Translations under genes and position numbers: made by a program
Shown here: piece after piece, positions 1,892-35,186 of the stretch
Layout: each line of letters begins with the position of its first letter
How positions within the stretch are numbered: the first letter of the stretch is position 1
The notes under the pieces: generated by a model
The model's database searches: none
Seen by the model: only the letters and a program-made list of their open reading frames with translations
What the model was told of the DNA's origin: nothing
NCBI GenBank assembly: GCA_964356795.1
Contig: CAYHIK010000001.1
Span: 3,111 to 67,110 of the forward strand
DNA from: an uncultured Candidatus Saccharibacteria bacterium
GTDB lineage: Bacteria; Patescibacteriota; Minisyncoccia; 2-02-FULL-40-12; GWA2-44-9
Direction of reading: 5' to 3'
Length of the DNA stretch: 64,000 nucleotides

Positions 1892-1894
1892 GCC

Positions 1895-2200
1895 TCAAGT
1901 ATACACCACCACACCCTCTTTGAGCAGATGCTCCTTCTTTGCGCGTATGCCCAGCGCGAATCCTCCTAACGTTCCATCGGAGCGAATCACTCGATGACAC
2001 GGCACGTCAGGAGCAAATGGATTCACGTGAAGTGCGCGACCTACGGCACGGGCGGCCTTCGGATTCCCTACGCGACGCGCGACCTCTGCGTACGTCATCA
2101 CATGTCCACGCGGAATACAGGCAACGACGCGATACACGGATTGCGCAAATAAGCTCAAGCCTGGATGTTGTCGTATGCGCTGGTCAATGCTCGGCTTCAT
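1895..2200 (-). CDS. methylated-DNA-protein-cysteine methyltransferase family protein (DNA-binding/active-site domain only)
   Basis: A PCHRV active-site motif (VPCHRVIRSDGTLGGF) sits within a ~100 aa MGMT C-terminal domain. There is no N-terminal domain. Confidence 0.65.
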   Translation of the reverse strand: MKPSIDQRIRQHPGLSLFAQSVYRVVACIPRGHVMTYAEVARRVGNPKAARAVGRALHVNPFAPDVPCHRVIRSDGTLGGFALGIRAKKEHLLKEGVVVYT

Positions 2201-2224
2201 ACGCGGAGCATAGCACGTACAGCG

Positions 2225-2884
2225 CTAGACCGTCGACTGACGATCAGGAAGGGGTTTCACCTGTTGGCGCCCCACGAATCCACGGAGATCGGAATAAATA
2301 CGAATTTGCATAATAGCGCCAAGCACTGCAAAGACACCGCCAATAAGAAACGCGGCTCGAAATCCATAATTCGTTACAATAATTCCTGATAATGCGGCCG
2401 CACCAGCACCGCTAATGCCGATCGCAACCGATTCAAGTGACCACTCGATATTTTCTTTCATCTTATCGATATGGCGCGTAAAGATTGCATACCACGGAGG
2501 GACCGCGAGCGCAGCTCCTACTCCAAACCATGCCTGTATCGCGTAGATGTGCCATGAGGTCGTAGCAAAAAGATATAGAAAAGGAGTCGATGCGATAACG
2601 ATACTGCCTGATACCATGCTATAAAAATCGTCGTACTCGCCGTGATTCTTGTCGAGCCAACGAGCGACGGGAATCTGGAGCGACGCCTTCACGAGTTGCG
2701 CGATAGCAACAGCAAACCCGACAACCTCGATGGTGCCGTCGGTAATTTGATTTGTTACGAATACTGCAAATACGGGCGCAAACACAGAAAGCCCAGAATT
2801 AATTAAAAAGTCGCTCGTAATGAGGACACGAATTGCATGACTGATACGCATGTTATCAGTATACCAAAAAGAGCCGCCCTGCAC
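2225..2884 (-). CDS. 6-TM MFS-like membrane protein (half-size, possibly truncated or split transporter)
   Basis: A hydrophobic 219 aa protein with about six predicted TM segments. Its sequence looks like the C-terminal half of an MFS transporter, and no N-terminal half is encoded upstream. Confidence 0.35.
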   Translation of the reverse strand: MQGGSFWYTDNMRISHAIRVLITSDFLINSGLSVFAPVFAVFVTNQITDGTIEVVGFAVAIAQLVKASLQIPVARWLDKNHGEYDDFYSMVSGSIVIASTPFLYLFATTSWHIYAIQAWFGVGAALAVPPWYAIFTRHIDKMKENIEWSLESVAIGISGAGAAALSGIIVTNYGFRAAFLIGGVFAVLGAIMQIRIYSDLRGFVGRQQVKPLPDRQSTV

Positions 2885-2913
2885 GGCTCTTCCTGTGTAT
2901 GAACTAAGAATAT

Positions 2914-4119
2914 CTACCGATGCAATATATGTGGCATCCCCCAGCCCGTTGCAGAGTCATCACCTTTTAGGTTGATGTCGGCCGCCATTTCACGAAGCAA
3001 GAACCGCGTGGCCTCGGCGGAATTCTTTGCATCGCTCTGCCAGACAAGCGCAGCAAGACCCGCTACATGCGGGGCCGCCATCGATGAGCCAGACAAGATG
3101 GCGTAGCCACCGCCACGATATGTTGATTCAATATTGATGCCAGGCGCAGCAAACTCAACATCTCCTTCATTACGCTGATAGGCACGCGTTGAATCGTTTA
3201 ATCCGCGCGAAGAAAATTCGGCAGGGGCTTGCGCGTTATCAAGAGCACCGACCGACACGACACGCTCGCTTCGCGCAGGCCAATCCAAGCTGTCGTCATA
3301 TGGGCCGTCGTTTCCGGCGGCGGCGATGACGAGCACATCGTGCTCCATCGCGTACACCAACGCGTCATCAATGAACGAGCTCTCCGATTCACCACCAAAT
3401 CCGAGCACGATAATCTGTGCACCATCATCAACTGCGCGCATCATTGCGGCGCCGATGTCGTCGGAGTAGCAGAGGCCATCGCCGTCGCATACGCGATATG
3501 CGGAAATACTTGCCGATGGAGCAAATCCGTAAATACCTTCGCCAAACACTCCGCCGTCAGCTGCGATAATGCCTGCCATGTGCGTACCGTGACCATTTGC
3601 GTCATCGCAAGAATCTTCAACGATGGGCTTTGCACCGTCAGAGAATGAGACGCATCCTACGATTCGGCGGGCCAAGTCGGGATGCTCCCGATCAACGCCG
3701 GTATCCAGCACTGCAACCGTCACACCAGAGCCTCCCGCTGTTTCCTTTGCCTGCGGGTCGTCGAGCATCTCACGAATCCCCCATGACACGAGCTGTGAGG
3801 GTATTGCCTGGGGCGTTGGAGAACTTAATGCGATTGTCTCGGCTAGTATGTTGAACTTTTTCACAGGAATTGGTCGGAGCCCTGCAAGCCGAACAAGTTT
3901 GAGCTGTAAATCGCTCAGCGTTGCGGTAAATCCGTCCTCGAACACATGGCGAGCACCAATAGCGTTCTTCCAGAAAGAACGTGTTGTGGGTATGAAATAG
4001 CGACCGTCAGCATTGACGGAAGCAGCATGAGTCGATGGGGAGCTGGCTAAAACAAACGAAAAAACAAGGAAAATAGCCGCGAATATTGGTTTCATAATTG
4101 CATGGCAAGTATAGCACAT
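2914..4119 (-). CDS. secreted subtilisin-like serine peptidase (S8 family)
   Basis: N-terminal signal peptide. It carries the S8 catalytic triad motifs DTGVD, GHGTHMAGIIAA and GSSMAAPHVAG. Confidence 0.85.
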   Translation of the reverse strand: MCYTCHAIMKPIFAAIFLVFSFVLASSPSTHAASVNADGRYFIPTTRSFWKNAIGARHVFEDGFTATLSDLQLKLVRLAGLRPIPVKKFNILAETIALSSPTPQAIPSQLVSWGIREMLDDPQAKETAGGSGVTVAVLDTGVDREHPDLARRIVGCVSFSDGAKPIVEDSCDDANGHGTHMAGIIAADGGVFGEGIYGFAPSASISAYRVCDGDGLCYSDDIGAAMMRAVDDGAQIIVLGFGGESESSFIDDALVYAMEHDVLVIAAAGNDGPYDDSLDWPARSERVVSVGALDNAQAPAEFSSRGLNDSTRAYQRNEGDVEFAAPGINIESTYRGGGYAILSGSSMAAPHVAGLAALVWQSDAKNSAEATRFLLREMAADINLKGDDSATGWGMPHILHR

Positions 4120-4140
4120 TCAACCCTTGGAAACAATCAA

Positions 4141-4788
4141 TTATTCGCCCGAAATTGCGCCATCTGACACGAGCATTTTCGGCTGAATATTCAGCGTTTT
4201 TAATACCGCAAAGTCGCGTATGAGCGTCTCCTTTGTGGATGCGTTATACACAGCCACGGCGGGGTGGTACAGCGGCACGATTGTAATTGGCCCGTAGGAG
4301 GCTTTCGTCGCAATGACCGTTCCGTGAAGAGCGCTAATTGGGGCGAGTTTATCCTTGCACCCAAAATGCTCCATGAGATATGCAGCAGCATATCTCCCAA
4401 GCGGAATAAGTACCTCGGGTTGAATTAATTGAATCTGTCGATCAAGAAAGGGGCCGTATGATGCAATCTCTTCTGGAAATGGATCGCGATTCGACGGTGG
4501 TCGGTCTTTTACGATATTCGTGATATAGACCGAAGAGCGATCGATATCGATTGACGCAAAGAGTTGGTCTAAAATCTTTCCCGTCGCACCGACGAATGGG
4601 CGACCCGTTGCCGCCTCGTTCCGACCAGGAGCCTCTCCGATAAACATCGCCCGCGCACCATGATGCCCTTCGCCGATGACAGGGTGCGCGCCATTCTTGA
4701 TGCGGTCTTCGTAGAGAGGCGACGTTGTGAGCGCAAGCACTTCATCGCGAATCGCGCGAAGCTGCTCAGTGATGGGAGATGTTTGCAT
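4141..4788 (-). CDS. uracil-DNA glycosylase, family 4
   Basis: GEAPGRNEAATGRPFVGATG motif and a C-terminal HPA motif. The start is likely the internal ATG at 4788 (MQTSPITEQ...). The longer track ORF to 4911 overlaps the upstream gene. Confidence 0.7.
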   Translation of the reverse strand: MQTSPITEQLRAIRDEVLALTTSPLYEDRIKNGAHPVIGEGHHGARAMFIGEAPGRNEAATGRPFVGATGKILDQLFASIDIDRSSVYITNIVKDRPPSNRDPFPEEIASYGPFLDRQIQLIQPEVLIPLGRYAAAYLMEHFGCKDKLAPISALHGTVIATKASYGPITIVPLYHPAVAVYNASTKETLIRDFAVLKTLNIQPKMLVSDGAISGE

Positions 4789-6142
4789 GACGCTTATTGT
4801 ACGGAACCGATGCACGTCCTGCAATGCCAGCGATGAGCGCCCACACTCCCCACCACAATAATCTGCCCTGCTGGAGCGTCCACGTGAAATGATCAAAGAG
4901 CACGATGGCACTCATCGAAAGCGCGAGCATGATAAGCGCAAAACGAACGAGTGGCTCACCCCGCTTCCGCATACGCTCCCGAATGCAGTACGCCATCCAC
5001 GCGATGAATGCAACAACACCGATAATACCTATTTCCGAATACATCAGGAGATACACGTTGTGCGCGGGCTGATACATATACCTGGGCAGGCCTGGATTGT
5101 AGTGGAAGAGCCACATTGGGAAATTACCAATACCGACGCCGAACCAATTAATATTCAACAGCGCCCGCGACCCGCTCGCGAGGGCGTCGATATTATATTG
5201 CACCCGATATCGCACCGCCTCATCAGATGATGAAATAGAAATGCGCGCGACAATGAGCGAAGAGAGCGCGAGACAGATGATTGCGCTCGAAATCGTGAGC
5301 GCAGCAAAGAGCCGTAAAAATCGCGCGCGAATTGTACGCCACCACGAGGCGCCCCGATACGCCTGATATGCGACGTATCCGAGCGTCACCATCAAAGCCG
5401 TCACATGCATTGCAATGATGGTACGGGAAAAAGTAACTACCAGACCCAGCGTAATAATTCCCATCGTGGCAGAATAAATTCCCATCGTGAGGGGCGATTC
5501 GTCGTCGTGCCTCATCCAGAACCACGACCACACCCACAGCGCCACCATCAATACGGCTGCGAGAATATTGGGATGTGGCAGGGTACCGTATGCGCGCAAC
5601 ACCTTCACCTTCGATAAATCATAAAACACTGCGACTCCCCTCATATCTGGGTTCAGGAGCGTCTCTCCAAGCCATCGGAGACCAACGTCGTGCTGGAGAA
5701 CAAACTGAGCAATACCGAGAGACGCTTGCACGAGCGCGCCCACCACAAACGCGAGCGCTGAAGCATCAGCTCGAAATACATACCAGGCATAGTGGCGAAG
5801 ATAGAGGTACAACAGCACACCCTCGATAAGCCGAGCGATAGAGTAGAGCGCAATAGGAAGTTCTTGAGCGTATATCAATGAACCAAGGGACATAGCCAGC
5901 ACGACTCCGAGGCTCCAATCCCACGCATCGAGGCGCCCCACGAACCACGCGCGCAGTCGTATACATGCAATCGTGAACAGGGCGAGCAGTAATACATCAG
6001 ACACATACAGCGCCATGGAGTTCCATTCACTAAATTGCAGGTCGTGCGTCCAGAATATCCAACGCGTTTGCCACGTACACAAACCTAAAAAAACATACCA
6101 CACGCCCTGCTCGAGAGACGGTAGCCACGATGAAGTCTTCAT
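4766..6142 (-). CDS. O-antigen ligase family (Wzy_C) polytopic membrane protein
   Basis: Multi-TM protein with Wzy_C-like FSRT...AHNVYLLMYSEIGIIG motifs. The start is probably ATG 6142 (MKTSSW), giving an ATGA overlap with the upstream permease stop. Confidence 0.55.
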   Translation of the reverse strand: MKTSSWLPSLEQGVWYVFLGLCTWQTRWIFWTHDLQFSEWNSMALYVSDVLLLALFTIACIRLRAWFVGRLDAWDWSLGVVLAMSLGSLIYAQELPIALYSIARLIEGVLLYLYLRHYAWYVFRADASALAFVVGALVQASLGIAQFVLQHDVGLRWLGETLLNPDMRGVAVFYDLSKVKVLRAYGTLPHPNILAAVLMVALWVWSWFWMRHDDESPLTMGIYSATMGIITLGLVVTFSRTIIAMHVTALMVTLGYVAYQAYRGASWWRTIRARFLRLFAALTISSAIICLALSSLIVARISISSSDEAVRYRVQYNIDALASGSRALLNINWFGVGIGNFPMWLFHYNPGLPRYMYQPAHNVYLLMYSEIGIIGVVAFIAWMAYCIRERMRKRGEPLVRFALIMLALSMSAIVLFDHFTWTLQQGRLLWWGVWALIAGIAGRASVPYNKRHANISHH

Positions 6143-7284
6143 CGCAACATGAGTTCGAACACAACCCCCGCAAGGAATATCAACGCGAGGCACCAGACGA
6201 GAAGTGACGGGATTGGAATATTAAACTCTGGTGTCCGCAAACGATTCTTGCGCGAGCGAACATACGCAATCAACACCAGCACCGACTGAAACCCGATAGC
6301 AACCGCGCCCACCAATCCAATGACATCGATAAAATTCCGAAGACCGCTCACGAACATGAGCAATGGCGGTACGAGGGTTAACATCCACGCGTGAATCGGT
6401 CGAATACGGTAATCGCGATGAAATGTTTCAAAGAGTGCAGTACCTAATAATATGTAGGACGTTGTCATGGTCAGCAGTCCAAGACATGAGCCGAGGATGA
6501 TAACCGGCATCCCAAATGTCCCAAAAAGTCCTGCGAATGATTCGGGCGATGTGATGTCGCCACTAATACCCACAATCGTAAATGCGAAGATAAGGTACAA
6601 CACTGCAACAATCGAAACTGCCGTGATAATCGCGGGTCGCATTAAACGCTCACGACCAGAAAGCAACTCGCGCTGCAATGGAATAGCCGACATGCCTGCA
6701 AATGCAAACAGGAGCACGCCATACGGAAGATGCCAATACTCTGGCGTCCACGCAGTGATGTGATCCCACTGGATATGCGGGAATCCAATCCCGGCAATCA
6801 CTGCAATGATAGACGCATACAGTCCAACCAGCACAATCTCAAACACCGCCATCGTGCGAAGGCGTATAAACCACATCAGCGACAACATGGATGCGAAGCC
6901 GATGCTGTACCACTGGGGATTAACTGCGAGAAACTGGGAAAGCACGTTGTGGAGAAATTCTCCTGAGACAATCATGTATGCGAGGAGCGCCCCGTACATA
7001 CTGATAAGAAGCGCGCACGTCATGAGCGCGCGGCCAAGAGGACCAAGCCAAATATTGATATATCCCACGACCTGATGGGTACCGGGCGATGATAGCACCA
7101 GCTCTGCAAACACAAGATCGAATAAAATCACGATAAGGGCCAATCCGACGAGCCAGGCGGTACCAACCCAAAAACCGGCCTTTGCAAATGCGAATGGAAT
7201 TCCAAAGATTCCAACGCCAACCATCGTGCCCACGAGCACGGCAGTCGCATACACAAACTTTCCATCACGTAGGATGCCTCGCAT
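6139..7284 (-). CDS. amino acid permease (Trp/Tyr/Ser-type HAAAP/AAT family)
   Basis: N-terminus MRGILRDGKFVYATAVLVGTMVGVGIFGIPFAFAKAGF, and about 11 TM segments. The track ORF begins at TTG 7314; an ATG at 7284 is preferred. Confidence 0.5.
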   Translation of the reverse strand: MRGILRDGKFVYATAVLVGTMVGVGIFGIPFAFAKAGFWVGTAWLVGLALIVILFDLVFAELVLSSPGTHQVVGYINIWLGPLGRALMTCALLISMYGALLAYMIVSGEFLHNVLSQFLAVNPQWYSIGFASMLSLMWFIRLRTMAVFEIVLVGLYASIIAVIAGIGFPHIQWDHITAWTPEYWHLPYGVLLFAFAGMSAIPLQRELLSGRERLMRPAIITAVSIVAVLYLIFAFTIVGISGDITSPESFAGLFGTFGMPVIILGSCLGLLTMTTSYILLGTALFETFHRDYRIRPIHAWMLTLVPPLLMFVSGLRNFIDVIGLVGAVAIGFQSVLVLIAYVRSRKNRLRTPEFNIPIPSLLVWCLALIFLAGVVFELMLR

Positions 7285-7327
7285 TCTGCTATTGTACCCC
7301 GCGCATTCGTACAATACAAAAGAGTCG

Positions 7328-9685
7328 CTACTTCTTACGAGTTACTGAACTCTTCAGTGCGTGCTTTAGCACATCATCCATGGTAGACACGGGAATGAAG
7401 GTCAGTTTTTGCTTTGCCTCCTTTGGCATATCCACGAGATCCCGCACATTGTCGGCAGGAATAAGAATAGTAGAGATACCCGCACGTAATGCCGCAAGCG
7501 ACTTTTCCTTTAATCCTCCGATAATCGTAACCTTTCCACGAAGGGTAACCTCACCTGTCATAGCAACTTTGCGATGTACGGGAGTTTTCGTAAACAATGA
7601 AATAAGCGCGGTCGTGAGGGCGATGCCAGCTGAAGGACCATCCTTCTTAATCGCGCCCGAAGGCAAGTGAATATGGAGATCCTCCTTGCCCATATCCACC
7701 TCGATACCCTGCTTTGCCACGTATGCACGAGCATAGGAAAGCGCTGCTTGAGCTGACTCTCGCATTACATCGCCAAGTTGACCTGTGAGGATGAGTTTTC
7801 CCTTACCTGGCATGCGAGCGACTTCAATAGGAAGGAGCTCTCCTCCCACGGGTGTCCACGCGAGACCCATAGCCATACCGACTTGGTCTTTCGATTCAGC
7901 AGCATCGTGGACAACTTTTTCAGGTCCGAGCATCCGCTCAACATCACGCACAGTCATCTTCACCTTTGTGGTCGGCGTGTTCGTCTCCACGAGCTTACGT
8001 GTGACCTTACGAGCAAGCGTCCCAATGAGGCGCGCCAACTCGCGCACACCCGCTTCGCGTGTATACTCGCGAATCACCGCGAGCAACACCGAGTCAGCGA
8101 AACGAACTTGGCCCTTCTTGAATCCGTGGTCAGCGAGAGCGCGAGGGACGAGAAATCCTTTTGCGATGGAAAGTTTTTCAGATTCGGTATATCCAGGAAA
8201 ACCAATAATCTCTAAGCGATCGCGGAGTGCGGGCGGAATAGTCTCAAGTGAGTTTGCGGTTGCAACGAACAGTACATCGGAAAGATCCAGTGGCATCTCG
8301 AGGTAATGATCGGAGAACGCGTGGTTCTGCTGTGGGTCGAGCGCCTCAAGAAGTGCGGAGCTTGGATCGCCACGAAAATCCATACCAAGCTTATCGATTT
8401 CATCCAGCAAGAACACGGGGTTCTTCACCTTGGCCGTGTGAATACCCTGCACGATTCGTCCCGGCATTGCGCCGACGTACGTCCTTCGGTGTCCCCGAAT
8501 CTCTGCCTCGTCACGCATACCACCAAGCGATACACGCACAAACTTTCTGCCCAATGCACGAGCAATGCTTTGCCCAATACTCGTCTTCCCTGTTCCGGGA
8601 GGTCCATAAAAACAAAGGATGGGTCCCTTTAATTTGCCGACCTGTTTTTGAACAGCAAGGTACTCGAGAATGCGGTCCTTTACCTTTTCCAATCCTGCAT
8701 GATCTTCGTCTAGGATTTTCTTGGCGCGCTTGAGTTCGATGACATCTTTCGTTGACGTCGTCCAGGGCAATTCAACAAGCCAGTCGAGATAGGTGCGTAC
8801 ATAGGAAACCTCTGGGCTCATTGGTGGCATCTTGGTGAGCCGATTGAATTCTTTCATCGCCTTTGCGTGCACCGATTCGGGCATCTTCGCATCATCAATT
8901 TTCTGCTTGAGCACATCGAACTCCTCGCGCTCATCATCAACACCGAGCTCCTTTTCGATGCTCTTGAGTTGCTCGCGGAGGAAGAACTCTTTTTGCATGC
9001 GTCCAATTTTCTTTTTGGTTTCTCGGGCAAGATCTTTTTCCGCTTCGAGCACTTCCATTTCACGAGAAAGGTGCACGTTGAGTTGACGCAATGCGTCACC
9101 ATGATCGCGCATCTCCAAGATATCCTGCTGTTGGCGGACGTCGAGATTTAAATTTGCCGCCACCAAGCCAATCACCTGCTCGGTGTCGCGGAGCTGTGTC
9201 ATAAGATATACCACCTCCGGCAAAATCGCGGGGAATGAACGTACATCGGCAATGTGTTTGAATTGTTCTAAGACACGACGAAGAAGCGCCGCATTCTCCG
9301 CGCTATCCATACGATCATTTGCAATAATCGCCTCCGCCTGTACCTGGATGTAGGGCACAAATCCGAGGTATTTTGTAATGCGGGCGCGACTCACGCCTTC
9401 GACATCAACCTTGGCACCACCGTCAGGTAAGCGAAATACTGAGATGATCTTGCCCACGGTGCCGACTGAAAAGAGGTCATCTTCACCAATTTCATCCTCT
9501 ATGTTCTTTTGCGTCACAAAAAGCACCATGCGGTCGCCCGCAAGGGCTGCCTCCATAGCGGCAATCGATTTTGATCGTTGCACAATCAATGGAATCACCA
9601 CTTTTGAGAACAACACCGTGTTCTTAAGGGCGATAAGGGGAAGCTGTTCGGATGAGGAATGTTGTGTTGGTTGTGGTTCGTTCAT
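7328..9685 (-). CDS. lon: ATP-dependent Lon protease
   Basis: Lon N-terminal domain, an AAA+ Walker A (GPPGTGKTS) and Walker B (DEIDKLG). The S16 domain carries the catalytic Ser in PKDGPSAGIAL. 785 aa. Confidence 0.9.
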   Translation of the reverse strand: MNEPQPTQHSSSEQLPLIALKNTVLFSKVVIPLIVQRSKSIAAMEAALAGDRMVLFVTQKNIEDEIGEDDLFSVGTVGKIISVFRLPDGGAKVDVEGVSRARITKYLGFVPYIQVQAEAIIANDRMDSAENAALLRRVLEQFKHIADVRSFPAILPEVVYLMTQLRDTEQVIGLVAANLNLDVRQQQDILEMRDHGDALRQLNVHLSREMEVLEAEKDLARETKKKIGRMQKEFFLREQLKSIEKELGVDDEREEFDVLKQKIDDAKMPESVHAKAMKEFNRLTKMPPMSPEVSYVRTYLDWLVELPWTTSTKDVIELKRAKKILDEDHAGLEKVKDRILEYLAVQKQVGKLKGPILCFYGPPGTGKTSIGQSIARALGRKFVRVSLGGMRDEAEIRGHRRTYVGAMPGRIVQGIHTAKVKNPVFLLDEIDKLGMDFRGDPSSALLEALDPQQNHAFSDHYLEMPLDLSDVLFVATANSLETIPPALRDRLEIIGFPGYTESEKLSIAKGFLVPRALADHGFKKGQVRFADSVLLAVIREYTREAGVRELARLIGTLARKVTRKLVETNTPTTKVKMTVRDVERMLGPEKVVHDAAESKDQVGMAMGLAWTPVGGELLPIEVARMPGKGKLILTGQLGDVMRESAQAALSYARAYVAKQGIEVDMGKEDLHIHLPSGAIKKDGPSAGIALTTALISLFTKTPVHRKVAMTGEVTLRGKVTIIGGLKEKSLAALRAGISTILIPADNVRDLVDMPKEAKQKLTFIPVSTMDDVLKHALKSSVTRKK

Positions 9686-9711
9686 ACAAATAAGGTGACG
9701 TTCTAGCGTGT

Positions 9712-9740
9712 CACTATACCATATTTCTCATATTTTGCAA
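9712..9740 (-). promoter_or_regulatory. sigma70-like promoter upstream of lon (TTGCAA-N17-TATAGT on minus strand)
   Basis: Reverse complement of 9712-9740 reads TTGCAA-17 nt-TATAGT, about 25 nt upstream of the lon ATG. Confidence 0.4.
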
Positions 9741-9751
9741 TGATTTCATCT

Positions 9752-9784
9752 AAAAAAGCCCTGTGCGTTATTCACGCACAGGGC
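9752..9784 (-). terminator. rho-independent terminator for the GC-rich gene 9807-10253
   Basis: Perfect 10-bp stem (gccctgtgcg / cgcacagggc) with a 7-nt loop, followed on the minus strand by a U6 run. Confidence 0.65.
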
Positions 9785-9806
9785 ACCAGAGATGGAGTCG
9801 AGGAAC

Positions 9807-10253
9807 CTAACTTGCACGCGCCAGGGCGGGGTCGTTGGGACCGAAGTCGTAGCCCAGCCAGCCGTAGTTCGCGCGCCACCTGCCGCCGCTCCAGTACAGA
9901 CACCGGACGCACGGGTCGCCATCGGAATCGCGGTAGATGGTGCCCCAGAAGAACACCGCCTTGCCCTTCCAGTCATCGGGGACGAGCTTGGGATGAGCCA
10001 GCAGGTAGTCTAGAGCGTTAGCGGGGAGGATGGGCTGGGACTTGAGCTCACGACGGAGGTTGTTGCCCACGACGAGCCTACTGCCCCGCTGCTTCTTGGA
10101 CAGGCGGAGCTTCACCCTGGTGGGGTCCCAGGTGAAGATGCCCTTCACTCGATTGGGGAGCTGGTCCTCTTCGTGATAGCTCCAGCCGTTGGGAATGAAG
10201 GGAAGGGCGTCGCAGTCAATGGCGTACCCACCATCGAACATCAAATCGCTCAT
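9807..10253 (-). CDS. hypothetical protein, compositionally atypical (high GC, Trp-rich C-terminus)
   Basis: ATG at 10253 (MSDLMFDGGYAIDCDALPF...) with an AAGGAG SD 7 nt upstream. The gene is clearly more GC-rich than the flanking genes, with GC-ending codons, and has its own terminator. No recognisable family. Confidence 0.5.
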   Translation of the reverse strand: MSDLMFDGGYAIDCDALPFIPNGWSYHEEDQLPNRVKGIFTWDPTRVKLRLSKKQRGSRLVVGNNLRRELKSQPILPANALDYLLAHPKLVPDDWKGKAVFFWGTIYRDSDGDPCVRCLYWSGGRWRANYGWLGYDFGPNDPALARAS

Positions 10254-10324
10254 AGTCAACTCCTTGGAACGAACACACCTACGCGATGTATTATGCCACA
10301 AATAATGTAGATGTACAAGAATCG

Positions 10325-11692
10325 CTACAGCTCAAATGATTGGCCCATATGGGGCACGATTGCGTCGACGCCAAGCTCCTGATGGGCGCGGTCCGCGAGT
10401 GCTTGGGAAGCTTCTGCCTCACCTTGGACGACAAAGCACTTCTTGAGCGTATTCCCTTGGTTTGCCTGTCGAATGTACTCCATGAGACCGTTTTGATCGG
10501 CATGCGCGGAGTATGCCCCAATCGAGGCGACATGGGCGCGGACCGGGACCTGCTCTCCAAGAATGCTCACCACCTTCTCACCGTCTTTGATTCTGCGTCC
10601 AAGCGAACCTTTTACCTGGTATCCGATAAACAAAATTGTATTTCGATTATCAGGAAGGTATCGACGCTCGTGATGCACGATACGACCACCCTGGCTCATA
10701 CCTGCGCCCGCGATAATAATCTTTGGAGCGGGAATACTATTAATTCCCTTTGATTGTGCGACCGCGGGAGTAAACGTGAGCCATGGGAACTGGAAGATTC
10801 CCCTGTTGTCACTGAGGAGCTCGCGAGCTTCTTCATTGAAGTACCGAGAAAATTTTCCATACTCTTTGGTAATCTCAATCGCAAGCGGACTATCAACGAA
10901 TACGGGCATGCGCGGAAGCTGTCCGGCTTCGAAGAGTGTGTCGAGCTCGAGCATCAGCTCTTGGGTTCGCTCAATAGCAAACGATGGAATCATCAGCACT
11001 CCCCCTCGTTCGTATGTTTGTAGAATTGTGTCGAGAAGTATCTGCCGCCGCTCACCGCGCGCCTCATGGAGACGATTGCCGTAGGCAGATTCAACGAGCG
11101 CATAGTCAACACCGCGCACGTAATCGATGTCGTGCAGGAGTGTGGATGGCGGATTTCCAATATCTCCCGAGAATAAAATTCGCTGTGCACGACCCTGCTC
11201 TTCGACGATGAACTCCCATGCGGTTGAGCCAAGCACATGGCCCGTGTCGTGCCCAATCATGGTCACCGCATGGTTGAGTTTTATTTTTTGACGATACGGG
11301 ACACCACGGAAAAGACTCACCGCGCCATCAAGGTCGTTGCGATCATAGAGCGGAGGCACTCCATGTGAACGCGCCTCAGATACAATCTTATCCAGCGTAT
11401 CGGGAAGCGCGGCAGCAACGATACCAGCGGTGGGCTCTGATGTGTAGATAACCCCACGGAATCCCTCACGATACAATTTTGGAATGCGACCCGTGTGATC
11501 GACGTGACTGTGTGTAATACACACATAGTCGATGGTCGCCGGATCGTACCCGAACTCATCGTAGTTCATCTCATCGTTATACCGAGAACCCTGAATCATC
11601 CCGCAATCAACGATGATGCGAAGCCCACCCGCTTCGAGTAAATAATTTGCTCCTGTCACGTATGCTGCGCCGCCAAAAAATGTAAGCTTCAT
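10325..11692 (-). CDS. MBL-fold beta-CASP family RNA-metabolising hydrolase (COG1236/RNase J-like)
   Basis: HSHVDHTG (the HxHxDH motif) in an N-terminal MBL domain, followed by a beta-CASP/RMMBL-like C-terminus. 455 aa. Confidence 0.65.
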   Translation of the reverse strand: MKLTFFGGAAYVTGANYLLEAGGLRIIVDCGMIQGSRYNDEMNYDEFGYDPATIDYVCITHSHVDHTGRIPKLYREGFRGVIYTSEPTAGIVAAALPDTLDKIVSEARSHGVPPLYDRNDLDGAVSLFRGVPYRQKIKLNHAVTMIGHDTGHVLGSTAWEFIVEEQGRAQRILFSGDIGNPPSTLLHDIDYVRGVDYALVESAYGNRLHEARGERRQILLDTILQTYERGGVLMIPSFAIERTQELMLELDTLFEAGQLPRMPVFVDSPLAIEITKEYGKFSRYFNEEARELLSDNRGIFQFPWLTFTPAVAQSKGINSIPAPKIIIAGAGMSQGGRIVHHERRYLPDNRNTILFIGYQVKGSLGRRIKDGEKVVSILGEQVPVRAHVASIGAYSAHADQNGLMEYIRQANQGNTLKKCFVVQGEAEASQALADRAHQELGVDAIVPHMGQSFEL

Positions 11693-11722
11693 CTCTTCTA
11701 GTATATACCATCCAGCGCAACA

Positions 11723-12556
11723 CTATATCCCCAGGGAGATTGCAAGCGCATACCCGAGAATTGCGGAAACGGCGATGGGAGGAAGGGCCGCCATGGGCGC
11801 AGTGCGCTCTTGGCGCGAGAATAGCCAGTGCATCACCGAGACGCCCACGAGCGAGAAGCCCGAAATCATCAATGCGGCGCCCACCGACTGACTCAATGCT
11901 GACACAGCAAGAATAAGCGGGAGGCCGATATCACCCGAACCAAGCACCATAACGTTCCGCTCCTGAATAGCGACAGAGCGCTTCTTAAAAAATGTGCGAA
12001 TACGTGCAGGAACGAGGAAACCAAATACTGCCCCACTCTGCATCATGCGCCCCGCCATCACTACCATGTGGCGAGAGCGATACACTGAGTAGATGTCATA
12101 TATTGAAAGAAGCGCGAGGAATGCGGACGCGATGAGCGGTGTAAGCGAGAGGCCAATGATTCCAGAGATACCGCCAATACCGAATATGATGGCGATGTTG
12201 TGAATAATTACCAAGGGAACCCGCCACGCGAGAAATGCGATAAGCACACCAGCGAGAAGGCTGTAGGGCATAGGAGTAATAGCTGCAAACACAAACTGCG
12301 CCCCCGCAATCAGCGCGACCATGAGAAAGAACGCGAGCGAGTAGCGTGCCACGCGCGCAAAGCGAACCATGACGTAGGTAAACACCGCAAATACCGCAAT
12401 GAAGATGAATGCACTCTGCATGCTCAGCTCGAGCGCGCCCAATCCTCCGCCAAGCCCCGGGGTTACGATATGCTTCCATGCCGCACACAGCGCAACAGCA
12501 ATCGTGCCAACGTAGAGCACGATCATAGACATAAACACGCGTATCGAATTACTCAT
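11723..12556 (-). CDS. presenilin/signal-peptide-peptidase-like intramembrane aspartyl protease (A22-like)
   Basis: Polytopic membrane protein with a YD motif in one TM (SIYDIYSVY), a GxGD-like motif in another (LGSGDIGLPL) and a PAL-like motif (AALPPIA). Confidence 0.4.
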   Translation of the reverse strand: MSNSIRVFMSMIVLYVGTIAVALCAAWKHIVTPGLGGGLGALELSMQSAFIFIAVFAVFTYVMVRFARVARYSLAFFLMVALIAGAQFVFAAITPMPYSLLAGVLIAFLAWRVPLVIIHNIAIIFGIGGISGIIGLSLTPLIASAFLALLSIYDIYSVYRSRHMVVMAGRMMQSGAVFGFLVPARIRTFFKKRSVAIQERNVMVLGSGDIGLPLILAVSALSQSVGAALMISGFSLVGVSVMHWLFSRQERTAPMAALPPIAVSAILGYALAISLGI

Positions 12557-13008
12557 TCACGAACAATTATAACACCTGCCTCATTTGTATTCGAGGCGTT
12601 CGTATATGCGTAGGTCCCAACAATAGAAAACGTATACGCGTAGTAGCCATTAGGATACACCGTACCAACACTATCAAACTCGGGAGTCCGCTGACCCGGT
12701 TGAAGCTGGGCAGTAATGCGGATAGGAAGTGGGCTTTCGTTTTTCCAGCGTACGGTATCCCCTGCATGAATGCGCAAGTTCGTAGGACTAAACACTCCGA
12801 AACGATAGCTCACATTATAGATACGCGCGTCGCGCTCCGCAGTAGAGGTTGGTGTTGGTTCAGGATTGTATTCAGGAGGACTTCCGAGCATCACCACCGC
12901 ACCAGTCATCATGAGGAGCACGAGCAGAATGAGCGGCCACAAATGAGGCCGTCCAAATGATGGTTCAGGTTCGGTACGACGTACTGCAAGAATAGCCGAT
13001 GTATCCAT
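12553..13008 (-). CDS. membrane-anchored hypothetical protein with cupredoxin-like beta domain (no Cu ligands)
   Basis: N-terminal TM segment, then a beta-rich domain (IHAGDTVRWKN...GVIIV) that resembles a plastocyanin-like fold but lacks the His/Cys/Met copper ligands. Confidence 0.35.
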   Translation of the reverse strand: MDTSAILAVRRTEPEPSFGRPHLWPLILLVLLMMTGAVVMLGSPPEYNPEPTPTSTAERDARIYNVSYRFGVFSPTNLRIHAGDTVRWKNESPLPIRITAQLQPGQRTPEFDSVGTVYPNGYYAYTFSIVGTYAYTNASNTNEAGVIIVRE

Positions 13009-13068
13009 GGCGAATAATCGTGATTGTATACTATTGATCGAATAAAAGCCACGAAGAAAAACCCGATC

Positions 13069-13743
13069 CTAATGGATCGGGAATGCGTTCGCGCGGGTGC
13101 GGATACTTCGAATCATCCTCTTCACAGCGCGGAGCGATGCAGTCTGTGGCATTAGTTGAAAGCATGCGCGGAACGCCCATGCCCGCTCCGGCTCATCGCG
13201 ATACAATCCTTGAATCATCGCACGGAGACTATCGCTATTGAACACCTCGTGAGAGTCATCGGCGTGACGACCAAACACCATGAATAGCGTCATATACCGG
13301 AGCAGACGCTGTGCATGCACGAGATCGGCGCTCCAAAAACAAGTCGCCCATGCCGCGCGCAGGTCTTCAACCGACTGCGCACTCGCCATGTATCGCCGTT
13401 CACATGGCTCAACGTGAAATCGAAATGGAAGGCACCACTCTCGCACGATGTGCGTATCCGTCGAATTGAATACGACGAGATGTACATCAGCGATAACTGC
13501 CCACACCTCACGAATCGTCATGTGGGGAAACAACACGTGGTATGCAGTATGAGCCCTCTCATTCCATGGGAACAAGTTGAACTCACGATCTGGACCATTC
13601 CGACTCCTAGGCTCCATGTGGTGCATCCTAGCATTCGGGTACTTCAGCTTGTACGGCTCTCGGGCTGTCGCATACGCTTGGTGCGGGTCGCCACTGGTAT
13701 GCCTCACGCGAGAAACCTCCTTGCATGAAACGAACTCAAGCAC
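13069..13743 (-). CDS. hypothetical protein
   Basis: 224-codon ORF inside the GC-rich block; no recognisable motifs. Confidence 0.35.
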   Translation of the reverse strand: MLEFVSCKEVSRVRHTSGDPHQAYATAREPYKLKYPNARMHHMEPRSRNGPDREFNLFPWNERAHTAYHVLFPHMTIREVWAVIADVHLVVFNSTDTHIVREWCLPFRFHVEPCERRYMASAQSVEDLRAAWATCFWSADLVHAQRLLRYMTLFMVFGRHADDSHEVFNSDSLRAMIQGLYRDEPERAWAFRACFQLMPQTASLRAVKRMIRSIRTRANAFPIH

Positions 13744-13815
13744 ACGGTATCATGCATACGTATTGTGTCAAAAAAACAGCCCAATCTTGGAGATTGAGCT
13801 GTAACCGAACAAATA

Positions 13816-15543
13816 CTAGGCGAGTACCACGGGATTCACCCCACGCGCGAACACGTAGTGTGGGGTCATGTCGGCGCGAGAGATGCGCGCCCACCACGGA
13901 TAGAACGTTCGAAGCCAGTGCTCGAGCGACAAGAATCGCTGACGCACCTCATCGTTGACGCCCCACTTGGTTCGTTGCCATGCGCAGAATTCGGCCTGAC
14001 GAAGATCAGATGTCATTTGGTACATCACCAAGTTGCCCATCGCCAGCGGGTACTCCGAAATTTCCGCAGGCACATGCGCCTGCACGAACGATGCATAGCA
14101 CTCCGCATCTCGCGCACGAGCGCTCGTACACGCCCGCGTGAACGCCTCGCTCTGAAACTTAGGATACGTGTAGAATCCGAGCAACGGTGTTACCCGGCTC
14201 CGTGCATGGACACTCAAGCTTTGACGCTGAAGGTCGCGCCATCCACGAAACGACATCGCATTCTGCACCATCACCGATGCAACTCGGAACAACTCCGGAA
14301 GTTTATCGTATTCACCACGTGGAACATCCTGGAGCGACGAGATGAAACGCTCAAACTCCTGCTCAATCTTATTCGCGAAGTCGATACCCCCGTAGATACG
14401 ACCATCGCGTGCCAAGAGGAGTCGCTCCATCACGCGACGTTCGTCGAACAAATCGAACACGAGTTCTTCCGTCGTCTCGATATACCGTGGCATGCTCCGC
14501 TCCCACGGAGTCGGATCGCAGTGCCGAAGGAAGTATCCGTGTCCTGCGCGCACCGTTTCATCCTGAATCATCTGTGCGACTGCGACGCACTCGGGAGAGT
14601 TCTCCAGTCGCAAGTGCTTCAAGAGCTCGCCCATTGCCTCGCCTGAAACGGCAAGTCCGAGTTCGGTCAGCGTAGCGCACGGCAACAGATTGCCCAGCAC
14701 GTCGCACGACTCACCAATAACGCCGGCGTTCAAATCTTTCTGATCTGTGACGCGCGACGAAGCCCACTCGCGCACTTCGTTCGGAAACGGTCCATCAAAG
14801 TTCGCACCGATGAGTTCTCGGTACGCTTCAACCGAAGCCTCAATGGTAACCTTGGCTCGGCGTTCGTATGCTTCACCGAAAACGCCAAGCTCGTTCCAGA
14901 TGGGGTACTGGCTCTTTCCCGAGAAGTCGACGTATCGCGTCGAAAGCTCGATGAATGCCGTCCCCGGCCAGGTCCTCTCGATAATCTTTGCGACCAGAAT
15001 CGAAACCTGCTCAACGCACAGAATGAGCCGGGCGGGTCGGATAATCGAGTTGTGGCCATACCGATCCAGGTGCTCATTCTTGAAGTCCTGGATACGCTTC
15101 GATGTGGCGATGTGGCGCCAGTACTCGGGATCGCCTGCAGCACTCACGAAAGACTCGAAGAGCGAGTCGAACGCAGGCGAATGATTACAAACGGCGTCGA
15201 GACCAGAGATGCTGAGCGTTCGGAACATCTTCTGGAGATCACGCCAATCCAGGTGCTGCGCACCTCCTTCGCCCTCACGAATCCCCGCAAACATCAGGAC
15301 GGGAATGAGGTTGTCCACGATATGCCCGCGAAGACCCCGCGAATTCTTGAGTCGCGAGTACATCGCAAGCACCGTCGCAATGACTGACTCGGGAAGCCCC
15401 GACAAGAAGAAAATCTTCCGATCGATGTTCGAACAAATCGCGGCCAATGCTCGCTTTTCGCGATTCGTAAACGTATAACTCACCGGCGCATTCACAAACT
15501 CTCGCGCCGCCGCATCCATCTCCGCCCGCATACTCGCGTCCAT
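13816..15543 (-). CDS. hypothetical protein (575 aa), GC-rich
   Basis: Long uninterrupted ORF with GC-ending codons. No confident family assignment. Confidence 0.45.
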   Translation of the reverse strand: MDASMRAEMDAAAREFVNAPVSYTFTNREKRALAAICSNIDRKIFFLSGLPESVIATVLAMYSRLKNSRGLRGHIVDNLIPVLMFAGIREGEGGAQHLDWRDLQKMFRTLSISGLDAVCNHSPAFDSLFESFVSAAGDPEYWRHIATSKRIQDFKNEHLDRYGHNSIIRPARLILCVEQVSILVAKIIERTWPGTAFIELSTRYVDFSGKSQYPIWNELGVFGEAYERRAKVTIEASVEAYRELIGANFDGPFPNEVREWASSRVTDQKDLNAGVIGESCDVLGNLLPCATLTELGLAVSGEAMGELLKHLRLENSPECVAVAQMIQDETVRAGHGYFLRHCDPTPWERSMPRYIETTEELVFDLFDERRVMERLLLARDGRIYGGIDFANKIEQEFERFISSLQDVPRGEYDKLPELFRVASVMVQNAMSFRGWRDLQRQSLSVHARSRVTPLLGFYTYPKFQSEAFTRACTSARARDAECYASFVQAHVPAEISEYPLAMGNLVMYQMTSDLRQAEFCAWQRTKWGVNDEVRQRFLSLEHWLRTFYPWWARISRADMTPHYVFARGVNPVVLA

Positions 15544-15636
15544 GATTTCTACCCCTTGTTAACGTGCCCGCGCACCGTAACAAATAAAAAAGCCCCGCAC
15601 AACGAGTGCGGGGAATCTGCCTGCCGAGAAGCGCGA

Positions 15637-16020
15637 CTAGAACACGAACGAGGCGAGAATCGACAGAACCGCGACGAGGGCAAGTAGTCCCGCCGACACC
15701 GAAAGGTGACTCATCCCCTCGGGATCCTGCTCAATCGTTGCGTACACCAGAGATGCGTTCACTCCAAATACCAGAGCGCACAGACCAAAGAGAGGTCCGT
15801 ACCACGGATTCCCCGTGAACCCCGTCGTAACACATAGGACTCCGCCAGAAGACATCGCAAGCACACCAAGAAATCGCACCCGTGAAAATTCACCGAGAAC
15901 GGTGTCGAGAAAATACTGCCGCCGAAAATCCCATACACCGAGCGCCACGAGTACAAGCCCGACAATTCCTAGAACCAGCACGACGCACCTCCTACAGAAG
16001 ACTTCGGACGACATCCGCAT
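15637..16020 (-). CDS. small membrane protein
   Basis: 127 aa with 3-4 hydrophobic segments. It overlaps the start of the Mur ligase gene by about 29 nt. Confidence 0.35.
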   Translation of the reverse strand: MRMSSEVFCRRCVVLVLGIVGLVLVALGVWDFRRQYFLDTVLGEFSRVRFLGVLAMSSGGVLCVTTGFTGNPWYGPLFGLCALVFGVNASLVYATIEQDPEGMSHLSVSAGLLALVAVLSILASFVF

Positions 16021-17290
16021 CTGACCAAGGAATCTTGCGCCCTCCAGCCAGTGCGATGCTTGTCTCCGAGCCTTTGCCTGTGATAATTACTATATCTCCT
16101 TTTTTCGCATCAGTCAATGCCTGTGCGATTGCCTCACGACGGTCCATGATGCGTTTTGTTTTTGTGCGACCAGATTCAGAGATGCCCTCCGCCACATCGT
16201 CGAGAATGCGCTTGGGATTTTCATCATAGGGGTCTTCGTTCGTGAGAATAATATTGTCGCAATACTTCTCTGCAAGTGCTCCAAACTTCGGTCGCTTCCA
16301 TGTATCACGTCCGCCCCCTGCAGCACCCAGCACTGCGATAAGGTTCTTAGCATTCGGCCGAAGCGTTGCATACACCGCCTCGAGGGATTCGGGCGTATGA
16401 GCATAATCTACCACCACGCCAAATGGTTCTTTCTGAATCCACTGCAACCGCCCCGGAATTTCCGCGATACTCTCAATAATTGGCTGTGCCGTTGGCAGGT
16501 CTACTCCATACATTGAAGCAGTCGATAGCGCGGCAAGAATATTGAGTACATTAAAATGACCGCCCAAGCGCGCCTCAAAGCGCGTGCCATACACATTGAA
16601 CGCAACGCAGTCTTCATGCACATCGAGCTGACTCGCGCGCATCTCACCACCCTCGACGCCGAAGAATAATTTCTTTTGTGCGGGGAATGATGCAAAGTAA
16701 TGCACCTCGGGATCATCGGCGTTCATGATGTGCACGTGCTGAGTGGTGGTAAATAATTTCCCCTTTGATGCACGATACTGCTCGTACCCTCCATGCGCCT
16801 CAATATGCTCGGGATGGAGATTCGTCCATACGGCACAATCAAACGTGACACCGATGTGACGCCCCTGCGCCAAACCTTCTGACGGAACTTCCATCACTAC
16901 ATGCGTGCAACCCGCAGACACCGCTTCGCGTAAAAACTTTTGAATCTTCCAGCGCCCTGGCATCGTCATCTTGAGTGTATTAGGCCACTCACGCTCTCGA
17001 ATCTTGTATCCAAGCGAACCAATCGCAGCAACTTTGACGCCAGCACCCTCGAGGAGTTTTGTGGTCAGATACACAACCGTGCTCTTCCCCTTAGTACCGG
17101 TGACGCCAATAACCTTGAGTTTCTGCGAGGGGAAGCCATAGCGAAGCGCCCCCGTCCACGCAAGCACTGGATGATACACACGCGCGGCAACACCAAACAC
17201 ACGCTTTGGGATAAAGCGCTTGATAAACCGCAGTGATGCATCAAGAATTCCCTCTTTAAACATGAGCCCAAGGATACTAGCGCGGAGCAA
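15992..17290 (-). CDS. murE: Mur ligase family, MurE-like UDP-MurNAc-tripeptide synthetase (short N-terminus)
   Basis: P-loop VIGVTGTKGKST. The central domain has TNLHPEHIEAHGGYEQYRASKGKLF. The C-terminal domain has DYAHTP...GAAGGGRDTWKRP...NEDPYDENP...GKGSE, matching the MurE DNPR-type signature. Confidence 0.6.
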   Translation of the reverse strand: MLRASILGLMFKEGILDASLRFIKRFIPKRVFGVAARVYHPVLAWTGALRYGFPSQKLKVIGVTGTKGKSTVVYLTTKLLEGAGVKVAAIGSLGYKIREREWPNTLKMTMPGRWKIQKFLREAVSAGCTHVVMEVPSEGLAQGRHIGVTFDCAVWTNLHPEHIEAHGGYEQYRASKGKLFTTTQHVHIMNADDPEVHYFASFPAQKKLFFGVEGGEMRASQLDVHEDCVAFNVYGTRFEARLGGHFNVLNILAALSTASMYGVDLPTAQPIIESIAEIPGRLQWIQKEPFGVVVDYAHTPESLEAVYATLRPNAKNLIAVLGAAGGGRDTWKRPKFGALAEKYCDNIILTNEDPYDENPKRILDDVAEGISESGRTKTKRIMDRREAIAQALTDAKKGDIVIITGKGSETSIALAGGRKIPWSDADVVRSLL

Positions 17291-18197
17291 TCTTGTACAG
17301 CCACGACCAGAATCGCTTGAATGTCATATCAAATGCACCGGGATACTCGATGGTGCGCGCGCCGAAGCCAAGCTTGAATCGCGTAACGCCGGGGTATTGG
17401 TCGGCATCGATTCCCCAGAAGTCATACCACGCGTATCCACGCTGTTTGTATTGCTGCATGAGCGTCCAGTGGAGAAGATGGGGCGCCATCAATGCACGAT
17501 GCTCGCGATCCATTGCACCGTGGAGATAGGTGACGGTCTTGCCGTGTTCAATCATAATTGCGGCGGCAATCGGTGCGCCACCGTAGCGCGCAACGTAGAG
17601 CACCGCACGAACCGCTGAATCAGAAGATGAAAAGTAGCGGAGTAACTTCTTGTAGTAGAGCATCCCGTGCGTACGGAAATCATCGTGCTCTGCGGTTTGC
17701 TGAAGGAGTTTCCAAAAAATATCGATGTCGGAAGATTGCTCGATCGTCACCCCTTTTCGTTCCGCGAGATTTATATTGTAACGATGCTTGTGGTGGAGCT
17801 TGTTGAGGAGTTCGTCATCGGAAAGCGTTAAGTCGGCGACGACCGTGCGTTTCGGCTGCATGTGTCGATACGAATGGCGTAATCGCATGCCGTTGCGAAT
17901 GAGAAGCTCGGGAACCATATCGTGCAGTGGCTCCATCTTGATAAACATACTCCCCTCGCGATGCGCGAGATCTTTGAGGTAGTGCGTAAAATGCGCTACC
18001 TCGTTGCGTAGGCCATCGCGCGCAAGCTCAAGATTCAATTCTGGTCCATAGGGAATATAGAGGAAGTTCTGCCCCATGCGAACATCGTGCCGTATAATAT
18101 TTGCCTTGAGGAATCCATCATCAAGACGCCACACGGGACGACCCAGATGCTTCTGAAATGCGAGCCACTCGATAGACTGTAGAAATGGACGATCCAT
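17277..18197 (-). CDS. FemAB-family aminoacyl-tRNA-dependent peptidoglycan bridge transferase
   Basis: 306 aa with FemAB-like YLHGAMD...WYDFWGI motifs, inside the cell-wall cluster. Confidence 0.6.
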   Translation of the reverse strand: MDRPFLQSIEWLAFQKHLGRPVWRLDDGFLKANIIRHDVRMGQNFLYIPYGPELNLELARDGLRNEVAHFTHYLKDLAHREGSMFIKMEPLHDMVPELLIRNGMRLRHSYRHMQPKRTVVADLTLSDDELLNKLHHKHRYNINLAERKGVTIEQSSDIDIFWKLLQQTAEHDDFRTHGMLYYKKLLRYFSSSDSAVRAVLYVARYGGAPIAAAIMIEHGKTVTYLHGAMDREHRALMAPHLLHWTLMQQYKQRGYAWYDFWGIDADQYPGVTRFKLGFGARTIEYPGAFDMTFKRFWSWLYKIAPR

Positions 18198-18217
18198 AGC
18201 GGTAGTATACCACGCGC

Positions 18218-34598: not shown

Positions 34599-35186
34599 TT
34601 AGTCGAAGCAGAGATACATGAGGCGATAATTCGAGTACTCCCAATCGCCGTCATCGTAGTCGTAACGGTCGGCGGGTCTCCGATTCGTCGGAACCCAGTA
34701 CCAGCCACATCCGACGTTCGGACGATACCAGTACGGCCAGTAGAAGCTCACCCACGAAGAACGGTCGTAGTGCCAGAGCCGATAGTGCGGACCGAAGTTG
34801 CGTCCGTAGAACCGGGTCCTGCCGTACCAATCGGCGCCACGATACGAGCGAGGGAAGCGATACCAGCGGCCCCGGTCAGGACGCTGATAGTTCCTCCAGT
34901 GATACTGATCATATCGATTGCGATCATCGCGACGGTCGTACTGCCCAGGACGCGGATGACGGTCCTGTGCGCCACGACGGTCTCGCTCGCTCTGTGCGCG
35001 AGGCACTGCACGGTTCGACGGTGGCGCCTCGTGAGCTCGCTCGCGGGGCTGAGCCTTCCGCTCGCGATTGCCATCGCTCGAACGCGGCCTGCCCTGCTGC
35101 TGTGCGTTTGCGGCGGTACCCGTACACCACAGGGCAGTGAGTACCACGAAGAACGCGATGAGCAGAATGCGTGTTCTGCGTCCCAT
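34599..35186 (-). CDS. secreted low-complexity Arg/Asp/Tyr/Trp-rich protein
   Basis: Strong AGGAGG SD 6 nt before the ATG. Sec signal peptide MGRRTRILLIAFFVVLTALWCTGTAANA-QQ. The mature region is dominated by R, D, Y and W in RY/WY-type repeats. Confidence 0.6.
   Translation of the reverse strand: MGRRTRILLIAFFVVLTALWCTGTAANAQQQGRPRSSDGNRERKAQPRERAHEAPPSNRAVPRAQSERDRRGAQDRHPRPGQYDRRDDRNRYDQYHWRNYQRPDRGRWYRFPRSYRGADWYGRTRFYGRNFGPHYRLWHYDRSSWVSFYWPYWYRPNVGCGWYWVPTNRRPADRYDYDDGDWEYSNYRLMYLCFD

Follow-up and report, generated by a model that had tools for sequence, protein, structure and literature searches.

A probable orphan target gene of a diversity-generating retroelement, inserted between an RNase gene and lon in a groundwater Saccharibacteria bacterium

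In diversity-generating retroelements (DGRs), a reverse transcriptase (RT) and its partner protein Avd copy the RNA of a template repeat (TR) into cDNA, misincorporating nucleotides opposite adenines, and this cDNA replaces the variable repeat (VR) of a target gene. The product of this gene, the variable protein, has a C-terminal binding face, which is the part encoded by the VR. The structurally characterized variable proteins Mtd, from Bordetella phage BPP-1, and TvpA, from Treponema denticola, have a C-type-lectin fold, a group to which TaqVP and AvpA also belong. In Bordetella and Legionella elements, a hairpin or inverted repeat just downstream of the initiation of mutagenic homing (IMH) sequence is needed for efficient homing, a requirement that is not universal. 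The DGRs of the Patescibacteria (the candidate phyla radiation, CPR) form a cellular clade of their own (DGR clade 2; Roux et al. 2021), and neither transmembrane nor known domains occur in their targets (PMC8144416). Wu et al. (2018) left the VRs of the 'CPR set' as unclassified groups and documented non-adjacent or remote targets, such as seven extra targets of the Treponema DGR (PMC5758913). Here, we describe a 148-aa open reading frame (ORF) in a 64,000-nt stretch (the window, in which all coordinates are given unless another locus is named) of contig CAYHIK010000001.1, assembled from the 0.1-um fraction of Hainich groundwater and assigned to an uncultured Candidatus Saccharibacteria bacterium. 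The ORF lies between lon and the gene for a beta-CASP metallo-beta-lactamase RNase, and it had been read from sequence as a recent foreign insertion of unknown function, with a toxin, immunity or defence role thought plausible. We find it to be a known kind of gene, a member of a CPR DGR target family, in an unusual orphan state. Our preferred reading, which we consider probable, is that it is an orphan, shortened and independently transcribed DGR variable-protein gene whose product now serves as a lectin-like binding protein of fixed specificity.

A homology search with the protein returned 938 clusters in an indexed search and 2696 representatives at 50% identity (E <= 0.001). All named sources of these homologues are Patescibacteria (Yanofskybacteria, Parcubacteria, Sungiibacteriota, Moranbacteria or 'Patescibacteria group'), so that, judged by the named sources, the family does not extend beyond this group. 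The closest named homologue, P0002, shares 65% identity over 94% of the query (E = 5e-58) and is encoded in a Yanofskybacteria metagenome-assembled genome, at a locus that we call L004. Its gene sits directly upstream of genes matching the profiles bAvd (42.6 bits, cutoff 40) and RVT_1 (79.3 bits, cutoff 29.6). The last 132 nt of the gene (L004 3483-3614) are repeated 488 nt downstream (L004 3971-4102) with 84% identity, and all 17 mismatches within the 123-nt core (17/17) fall at adenines of the downstream copy. Because the mismatches are found exclusively at these adenines, P0002 is the product of a DGR target gene, its C-terminus being encoded by the VR and the downstream copy being the TR. 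We surveyed 80 family loci from GTDB species-representative genomes, and in 43 of them an adenine-biased TR follows the gene at a distance of up to about 1.5 kb, usually a few hundred nt. Nearly all of these TR-bearing loci have an Avd gene (minus strand) and most have an RT gene (plus strand) where the contig extends far enough; the L004 RT, used as a tblastn query, matches 37 of the 80 loci at E <= 1e-43, and Avd is found in 43. Some family members consist of 3-4 tandem copies of the whole domain (P0121 with 481 aa, P0122 with 804 aa, P0123 and P0124).

The window gene shares these characteristics at the level of both DNA and protein. Its positions 9812-9943 align without gaps to the VR and TR of L004, and the 30 differences from the L004 TR are concentrated at adenine sites (18/35, as opposed to 12/88 non-A sites; Fisher p = 3e-5). 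The gap-free alignment and this concentration identify the Trp/Gly-rich C-terminus of the protein as a VR. At its end, the GC-rich, IMH-like sequence CCCCGCCCTGGCGCGTGCAA aligns with CCCCGCCGTGGTGCGCGCAA at the end of the L004 VR, where the homology between TR and VR ends. The conserved VR-type scaffold (FFWGTIYR...VRCLYW...W...PA..AS) is present, and the window protein retains all of the invariant columns (25/25) of a protein alignment of the family (A1). Homology extends beyond the coding sequence: the Shine-Dalgarno (SD) sequence, the spacer and the first 8 codons are identical to the L004 target gene at 33 of 35 nt (the gene body is 76% identical), and the terminators of the window, L004 and two family loci from the same metagenome as the window (L005 and L009) have a common loop, TGAATAA, with compensatory changes in their stems. 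The ORF thus almost certainly belongs to the Patescibacteria DGR variable-protein family, and what the original prediction had left as 'unknown function' becomes the homologue, at 65% identity, of a protein with a demonstrated VR/TR pair. The features of the window unit are the following.

9807..10253, minus strand: the 148-aa ORF with an ATG start, homologue of Patescibacteria DGR variable (target) proteins
9741..10324, minus strand: inserted segment of 584 nt, promoter through terminator, with no counterpart in the close relative L102
10290..10317, minus strand: promoter-like site TGTACA - 16 nt - CATAAT with TG before the -10 element (consensus scan, 9/12 matches, extended -10)
10260..10265, minus strand: Shine-Dalgarno sequence AAGGAG, 6 nt ahead of the ATG, read from the sequence
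10224..10232, minus strand: junction left by the in-frame loss of about 132 nt (N-terminal helical domain), from protein and DNA alignments
9812..9943, minus strand: VR-homologous region, about residues 104-147, the C-terminal Trp/Gly-rich part (gap-free against the L004 VR and TR)
9812..9831, minus strand: GC-rich 3' end of the VR, IMH-like CCCCGCCCTGGCGCGTGCAA, aligned to the L004 VR end, with a putative IMH function
9785..9806, minus strand: remnant of a conserved nested hairpin from which 47 nt are gone (alignment with L004, L005 and L009)
9752..9784, minus strand: intrinsic terminator, 11-bp stem and T6, homologous to the terminator of the target-gene units of L004, L005 and L009

Compared with the variable proteins of CPR DGRs, the window protein shows whole-length homology, a VR-type C-terminus that also aligns at the DNA level, homologous 5' untranslated region (UTR) and terminator, and the same small, soluble make-up, with no signal peptide, transmembrane segment or known domain. 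Unlike them, it stands in 64 kb that contain no TR, Avd or RT, it lacks both an N-terminal helical domain and a VR-adjacent hairpin, and it was recently inserted between two housekeeping genes instead of forming part of the usual cassette. The resemblance to Mtd and TvpA is more distant. The window VR is predicted to encode the last beta-strands and loops of a domain with two helices and an antiparallel sheet, comparable to the C-terminal VRs of these proteins, and the TRs of the homologous family loci are likewise rich in AAC codons. In contrast, there is no detectable sequence similarity to either protein, the window protein has 148 aa as opposed to 381 and about 280, and it is neither a phage tail protein nor a surface lipoprotein. 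With the remote targets of the Treponema DGR it shares the location of a target-type gene away from any RT; those targets, however, have a matching TR in the same genome, whereas the window gene has no TR in 64 kb and no VR-adjacent cis element.

The signals needed for the expression of a single gene can be recognized around the ORF. A sigma-70-like promoter site with an extended -10 element (10317-10290), a match to the consensus with a putative promoter function, precedes the SD sequence, and the terminator stem at 9784-9758 has 11 pairs (8 G-C) and a loop of 5 nt followed by TTTTTT (folding z-score -3.9). As lon has a separate promoter-like site (9740-9713), a monocistronic unit is plausible. 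The AAGGAG sequence, the terminator with its U6 tract and the location between lon and the RNase gene were all found where the original prediction had placed them, with a stem computed here as 11 bp; its description of a Trp/Gly-rich C-terminus (...WSGGRWRANYGWLGYDFGPNDPALARAS) and of a protein with no signal peptide (the N-terminus is not hydrophobic) also holds. We also considered the strong hairpin after the ORF as a DGR cruciform, a candidate that was rejected: it is the ordinary terminator of the target unit, kept in L004, L005 and L009.

The gene is very probably an insertion, as had been proposed. A Logan contig found by exact-sequence look-up (L102) encodes near-identical lon and RNase proteins and is collinear with window 1415-18211 (16 kb) at 85-90% nucleotide identity. 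In this relative, only 61 nt separate the RNase stop codon from the lon start codon, and the blastn alignment breaks at window positions 10340 and 9740. In six more distant relatives (L093, L096-L100), the RNase gene is directly followed by lon, within a conserved order of a cupredoxin-like gene, a signal-peptide peptidase gene, the RNase gene, lon and a permease gene. Given the uninterrupted RNase-lon pair in L102 and these six relatives, parsimony places a 584-nt insertion in the window lineage after its split from L102. The neighbours include no integrase or transposase gene, the junctions have no flanking direct repeats or target-site duplication, and there is no tRNA gene at the insertion site (the sole tRNA gene of the window is at 22842). 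An mRNA retrocopy is unlikely, as the insert includes the promoter region.

Several observations concern the surroundings of the insertion site. In L091, whose RNase is 77% identical, the RNase gene is followed by an ORF for an IS200-like Y1 transposase (L091 4710-5366, minus strand; Y1_Tnp, E = 7.5e-10), and holB-like, frr, M50 protease and proS genes are found in place of lon. The transposase and the different gene order in L091 mark the 3' side of the RNase gene as a recurrent rearrangement point. In L097, lon is closely followed by a distant homologue of the family (10514-10897; 28% identity, E = 5e-9), at the position of the amino-acid permease gene of the others; this contig ends before a TR or RT could be seen. 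Two further ORFs on the minus strand of the window, both conserved in L102, have weak matches: a 224-aa ORF (13069-13743) to HNH-like proteins and a 575-aa ORF (13816-15543) to Thy1 (ThyX-like).

Within the window, none of the other DGR components was detected. The L004 RT query found no RT (tblastn, best E = 1.0), the L004 Avd query found no Avd (tblastn), and blastn with 9740-10300 found no second copy in the 64 kb, and hence neither a TR nor a paralogue. Such orphan copies are common in the family, as about 19 of the 80 loci lack a TR, Avd and RT despite at least 4.8 kb of downstream sequence. One of the two loci from the same metagenome offers a clean example of retroelement loss or non-acquisition: L009 (1090-1733) shares with L004 (3041-6125) the order YchF - target gene - phosphoglucomutase and lacks exactly the TR-Avd-RT block. 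Both the nested hairpin and a hairpin resembling a terminator are still present in it; the tail of the latter is outside the aligned stretch.

Two deletions distinguish the window copy from its full-length relatives. At the N-terminus, an N-terminal helical domain of about 45 aa that is present in most members has been removed in frame (about 132 nt): the window protein reads MSDLMFDG followed directly by GYAIDCD, where the L004 protein has MSDLMLDV...(44 aa)...HAIDCD. Other members of 143-148 aa also lack this domain (P0008, P0063, P0133 and P0186), so it is not obligatory. In 13 of 68 members, the N-terminal ~45 aa show weak matches to ScsC_N, a helical trimerisation stalk (best E = 0.006), and judged from these sequences the domain might be an oligomerisation module. 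The second deletion lies outside the ORF, directly behind the VR. Here, alignment with L004, L005 and L009 shows that 47 nt of a nested hairpin are missing and that only flanking remnants are left.

The intact form of this element is a conserved three-tier nested hairpin placed directly after the VR and stop codon (L004 3620-3690, L005 8727-8800, L009 1669-1735, and most of the loci L010-L089). It has the form GGAC..GGTTCC..GGTC-loop-GACC..GAACC..GTCC with internal loops CTTTG/CTTAG, shows compensatory changes in its inner helix and is found with or without a TR. RNAalifold recovered the inner helix alone from a crude alignment of the nested hairpin, and Rfam has no match for the window region, the nested hairpin or the L004 VR-TR spacer. 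The nested hairpin may be the target-recognition element of this DGR clade.

The compositional contrast that had suggested a foreign origin is real. The ORF has a GC content of 62.4% and a GC content at third codon positions (GC3) of 82.6%, against 50.9% and 53.1% for lon, 52.3% and 53.5% for the RNase gene and a GC content of 51.8% for the window; the 584-nt insert has 58.2%. In 447-nt sliding windows, the GC content of the ORF corresponds to z = 3.6 and is attained by 0.33% of windows, and its GC3 corresponds to z = 4.1 against the 44 long ORFs of the window, which places it outside the ordinary range of the window. The sole other equally GC-rich region of the 64 kb is at about 34620-35222. 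A 195-aa ORF at 34599-35186 (minus strand, 61% GC) has a hydrophobic N-terminus followed by low-complexity sequence extremely rich in Arg, Asp, Tyr and Trp, and no Pfam match.

Across the family, the GC content of the target gene exceeds that of its flanks at 77 of 80 loci, the mean difference being 11.7 points. The offset from the flanks in complete cassettes is +7.8 points for the gene body, +19.9 for the VR and +9.4 for the TR, as opposed to -2.1 for Avd and -3.3 for RT; the higher value of the VR compared with the TR reflects the replacement of template adenines. The window gene matches this pattern, with +8.4 points for its body and +16.5 for its VR. Codon usage differs in the same way. 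In the 36 loci among L010-L089 with target, Avd and RT genes, the body of the target gene has a GC3 of 69.8%, compared with 48.4% for the adjacent RT gene (a difference of 21 points), and is the higher of the two in 33 loci. Third positions are composed of A12/C40/G30/T18% in target genes and A21/C25/G24/T30% in the adjacent RT genes, a bias mostly toward C-ending codons, and the GC3 of the target body correlates weakly with the GC content of the flanks (r = 0.39). As the same offset is seen family-wide, beside host-like RT and Avd genes, composition is not diagnostic of a foreign donor; high GC and GC3 are a trait of this gene family. The original prediction was therefore half right: its conclusion that the gene is an insertion stands, the composition from which it was drawn does not discriminate, and the toxin, immunity or defence function is not borne out (see below). 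GC deviation has previously been used as evidence for DGR transfer (PMC5758913). As a practical caution, a small gene with high GC and GC3 in these genomes can simply be a DGR target.

AlphaFold2, run with a 68-sequence alignment, yielded a confident model (pLDDT 95, pTM 0.89) with two helices packed on antiparallel strands, in which the VR forms the C-terminal strands and loops. The predicted fold is consistent with a divergent C-type-lectin-like scaffold and is not proof of one. A Foldseek search of the model against the PDB and viral structures gave no match at E < 0.1, and a profile search against PDB sequences gave chance-level matches only. The protein has no match in Pfam, PHROG or PADLOC (the last at E <= 1), and a Pfam scan of 68 family members returned only the weak ScsC_N matches mentioned above.

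How should this gene be read? That it is a live remote target, whose VR is rewritten in trans by a DGR elsewhere in the genome and which is hypervariable in the population, is in our view unlikely. In its favour, remote and non-adjacent targets are known (PMC5758913), many family members lack an adjacent RT, and several genomes hold more than one family copy. The window VR has the typical changes at template-adenine positions and has retained its GC-rich, IMH-like end, which also counts against the reading that we prefer. So do several other points. The contig is about 165 kb long, of which our analysis spans 64 kb, and a DGR elsewhere could act on the VR in trans. Any part that the nested hairpin plays in retrohoming is suggested by comparison with the Bordetella and Legionella elements. 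No relative in the databases exceeds 65% identity, and the insert may have come from another genome or from a paralogue in the same genome. The ligand, the expression and the cytoplasmic localisation of the protein are predictions. Against rewriting in trans stand the absence of a TR, RT and Avd from the 9.8 kb to one side of the gene and the 54 kb to the other, and the deletion of the conserved hairpin beside the IMH. The VR, as part of a 640-nt interval, is identical in three replicate assemblies, an identity that at 2-5x coverage says little on low-frequency variants. It also carries changes of a non-adenine type: Leu to Pro at the near-invariant residue 114 (CTG to CCG), and Ala (GCG) instead of the Trp (TGG) of most aligned members, at a position where a few others vary too. 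P0010 and P0029, from the same metagenome, have a different VR backbone and IMH. (We had considered these two as evidence of a common TR and rejected them as such, since their single VR backbone differs from that of the window.)

The remaining alternatives concern function and decay, and we regard both as very improbable. According to the original prediction, the gene might be a recently acquired foreign toxin, immunity protein or single-gene anti-phage defence system. The insertion is real and the composition is atypical for the host; moreover, conflict systems of other bacteria contain DGR-diversified lectin-like domains that putatively act as sensors (PMC10907252). Yet this atypical composition is common to the whole family, whatever the context, and the family is native to Patescibacteria. 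The database searches with the protein gave no PADLOC, Pfam or PHROGs match, and the unit, which is plausibly monocistronic, has no toxin-antitoxin or immunity partner gene, no recognisable toxin, immunity or effector domain and no mobility gene. The annotated neighbours of the family's DGR cassettes are housekeeping genes such as YchF, phosphoglucomutase (PGM) and tyrosyl-tRNA synthetase (TyrRS). The gene could instead be a decaying relic, a piece of a DGR cassette (a former or a transferred one) that has ceased to function and is being lost. This would fit the two internal deletions, the lost TR, Avd and RT, and the Pro at residue 114, where at least 90% of relatives have Leu. Set against it are an intact frame, with a promoter-like site, a strong SD sequence and a terminator, the invariant residues of the alignment, all of which are kept, and the very confident fold prediction. 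The N-terminal domain is naturally absent from the other 143-148 aa members; the first deletion preserves the reading frame and the second spares both the ORF and the terminator, so the unit is functional in form.

Our preferred reading, that of an orphan variable-protein gene with a fixed specificity, can be put as a sequence of steps. A shortened target gene of the Patescibacteria-specific DGR clade would have moved on its own, without its retroelement, and would have been inserted as a bare transcription unit (promoter, 5' UTR with SD, ORF and terminator) after the split from the nearest sequenced relative. The gene would be transcribed alone to give a small, presumably cytoplasmic protein with a distant C-type-lectin-like fold. 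Its former VR (...RDSDGDPCVRCLYWSGGRWRANYGWLGYDFGPND...) would form a ligand-binding surface of now fixed specificity, leaving a 'frozen' variable protein that has lost its diversification. Expression, binding and the loss of diversification are read here from the sequence, and for the frozen state in particular the balance tips modestly in favour. More generally, one may speculate that Patescibacteria DGR targets are mobilised alone as promoter-to-terminator units and then turn from hypervariable into fixed binders through loss of the retroelement and the VR-adjacent hairpin, and, separately, that the bias toward C-ending codons is linked to the DGR; we find this unlikely. A DGR-linked bias could arise from selection against adenines around the homing tract or from recurrent cDNA-mediated conversion, while gene transfer or expression level are alternative causes.

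A gene of apparently unknown function thus becomes interpretable as the target of a retroelement, probably caught soon after moving without it. Three points have modest interest: a bare unit was inserted between housekeeping genes at a time that can be dated, the deletions are paired, and the target genes contrast in codon usage with their own RT and Avd genes across the family. If the general proposal is true, DGRs would, through the stand-alone mobilisation of targets, supply genomes with new lectin-like proteins dedicated to binding. If the frozen state is true, orphans such as this one would be natural experiments on the binding specificity that is retained by a symbiotic, ultra-small bacterium.

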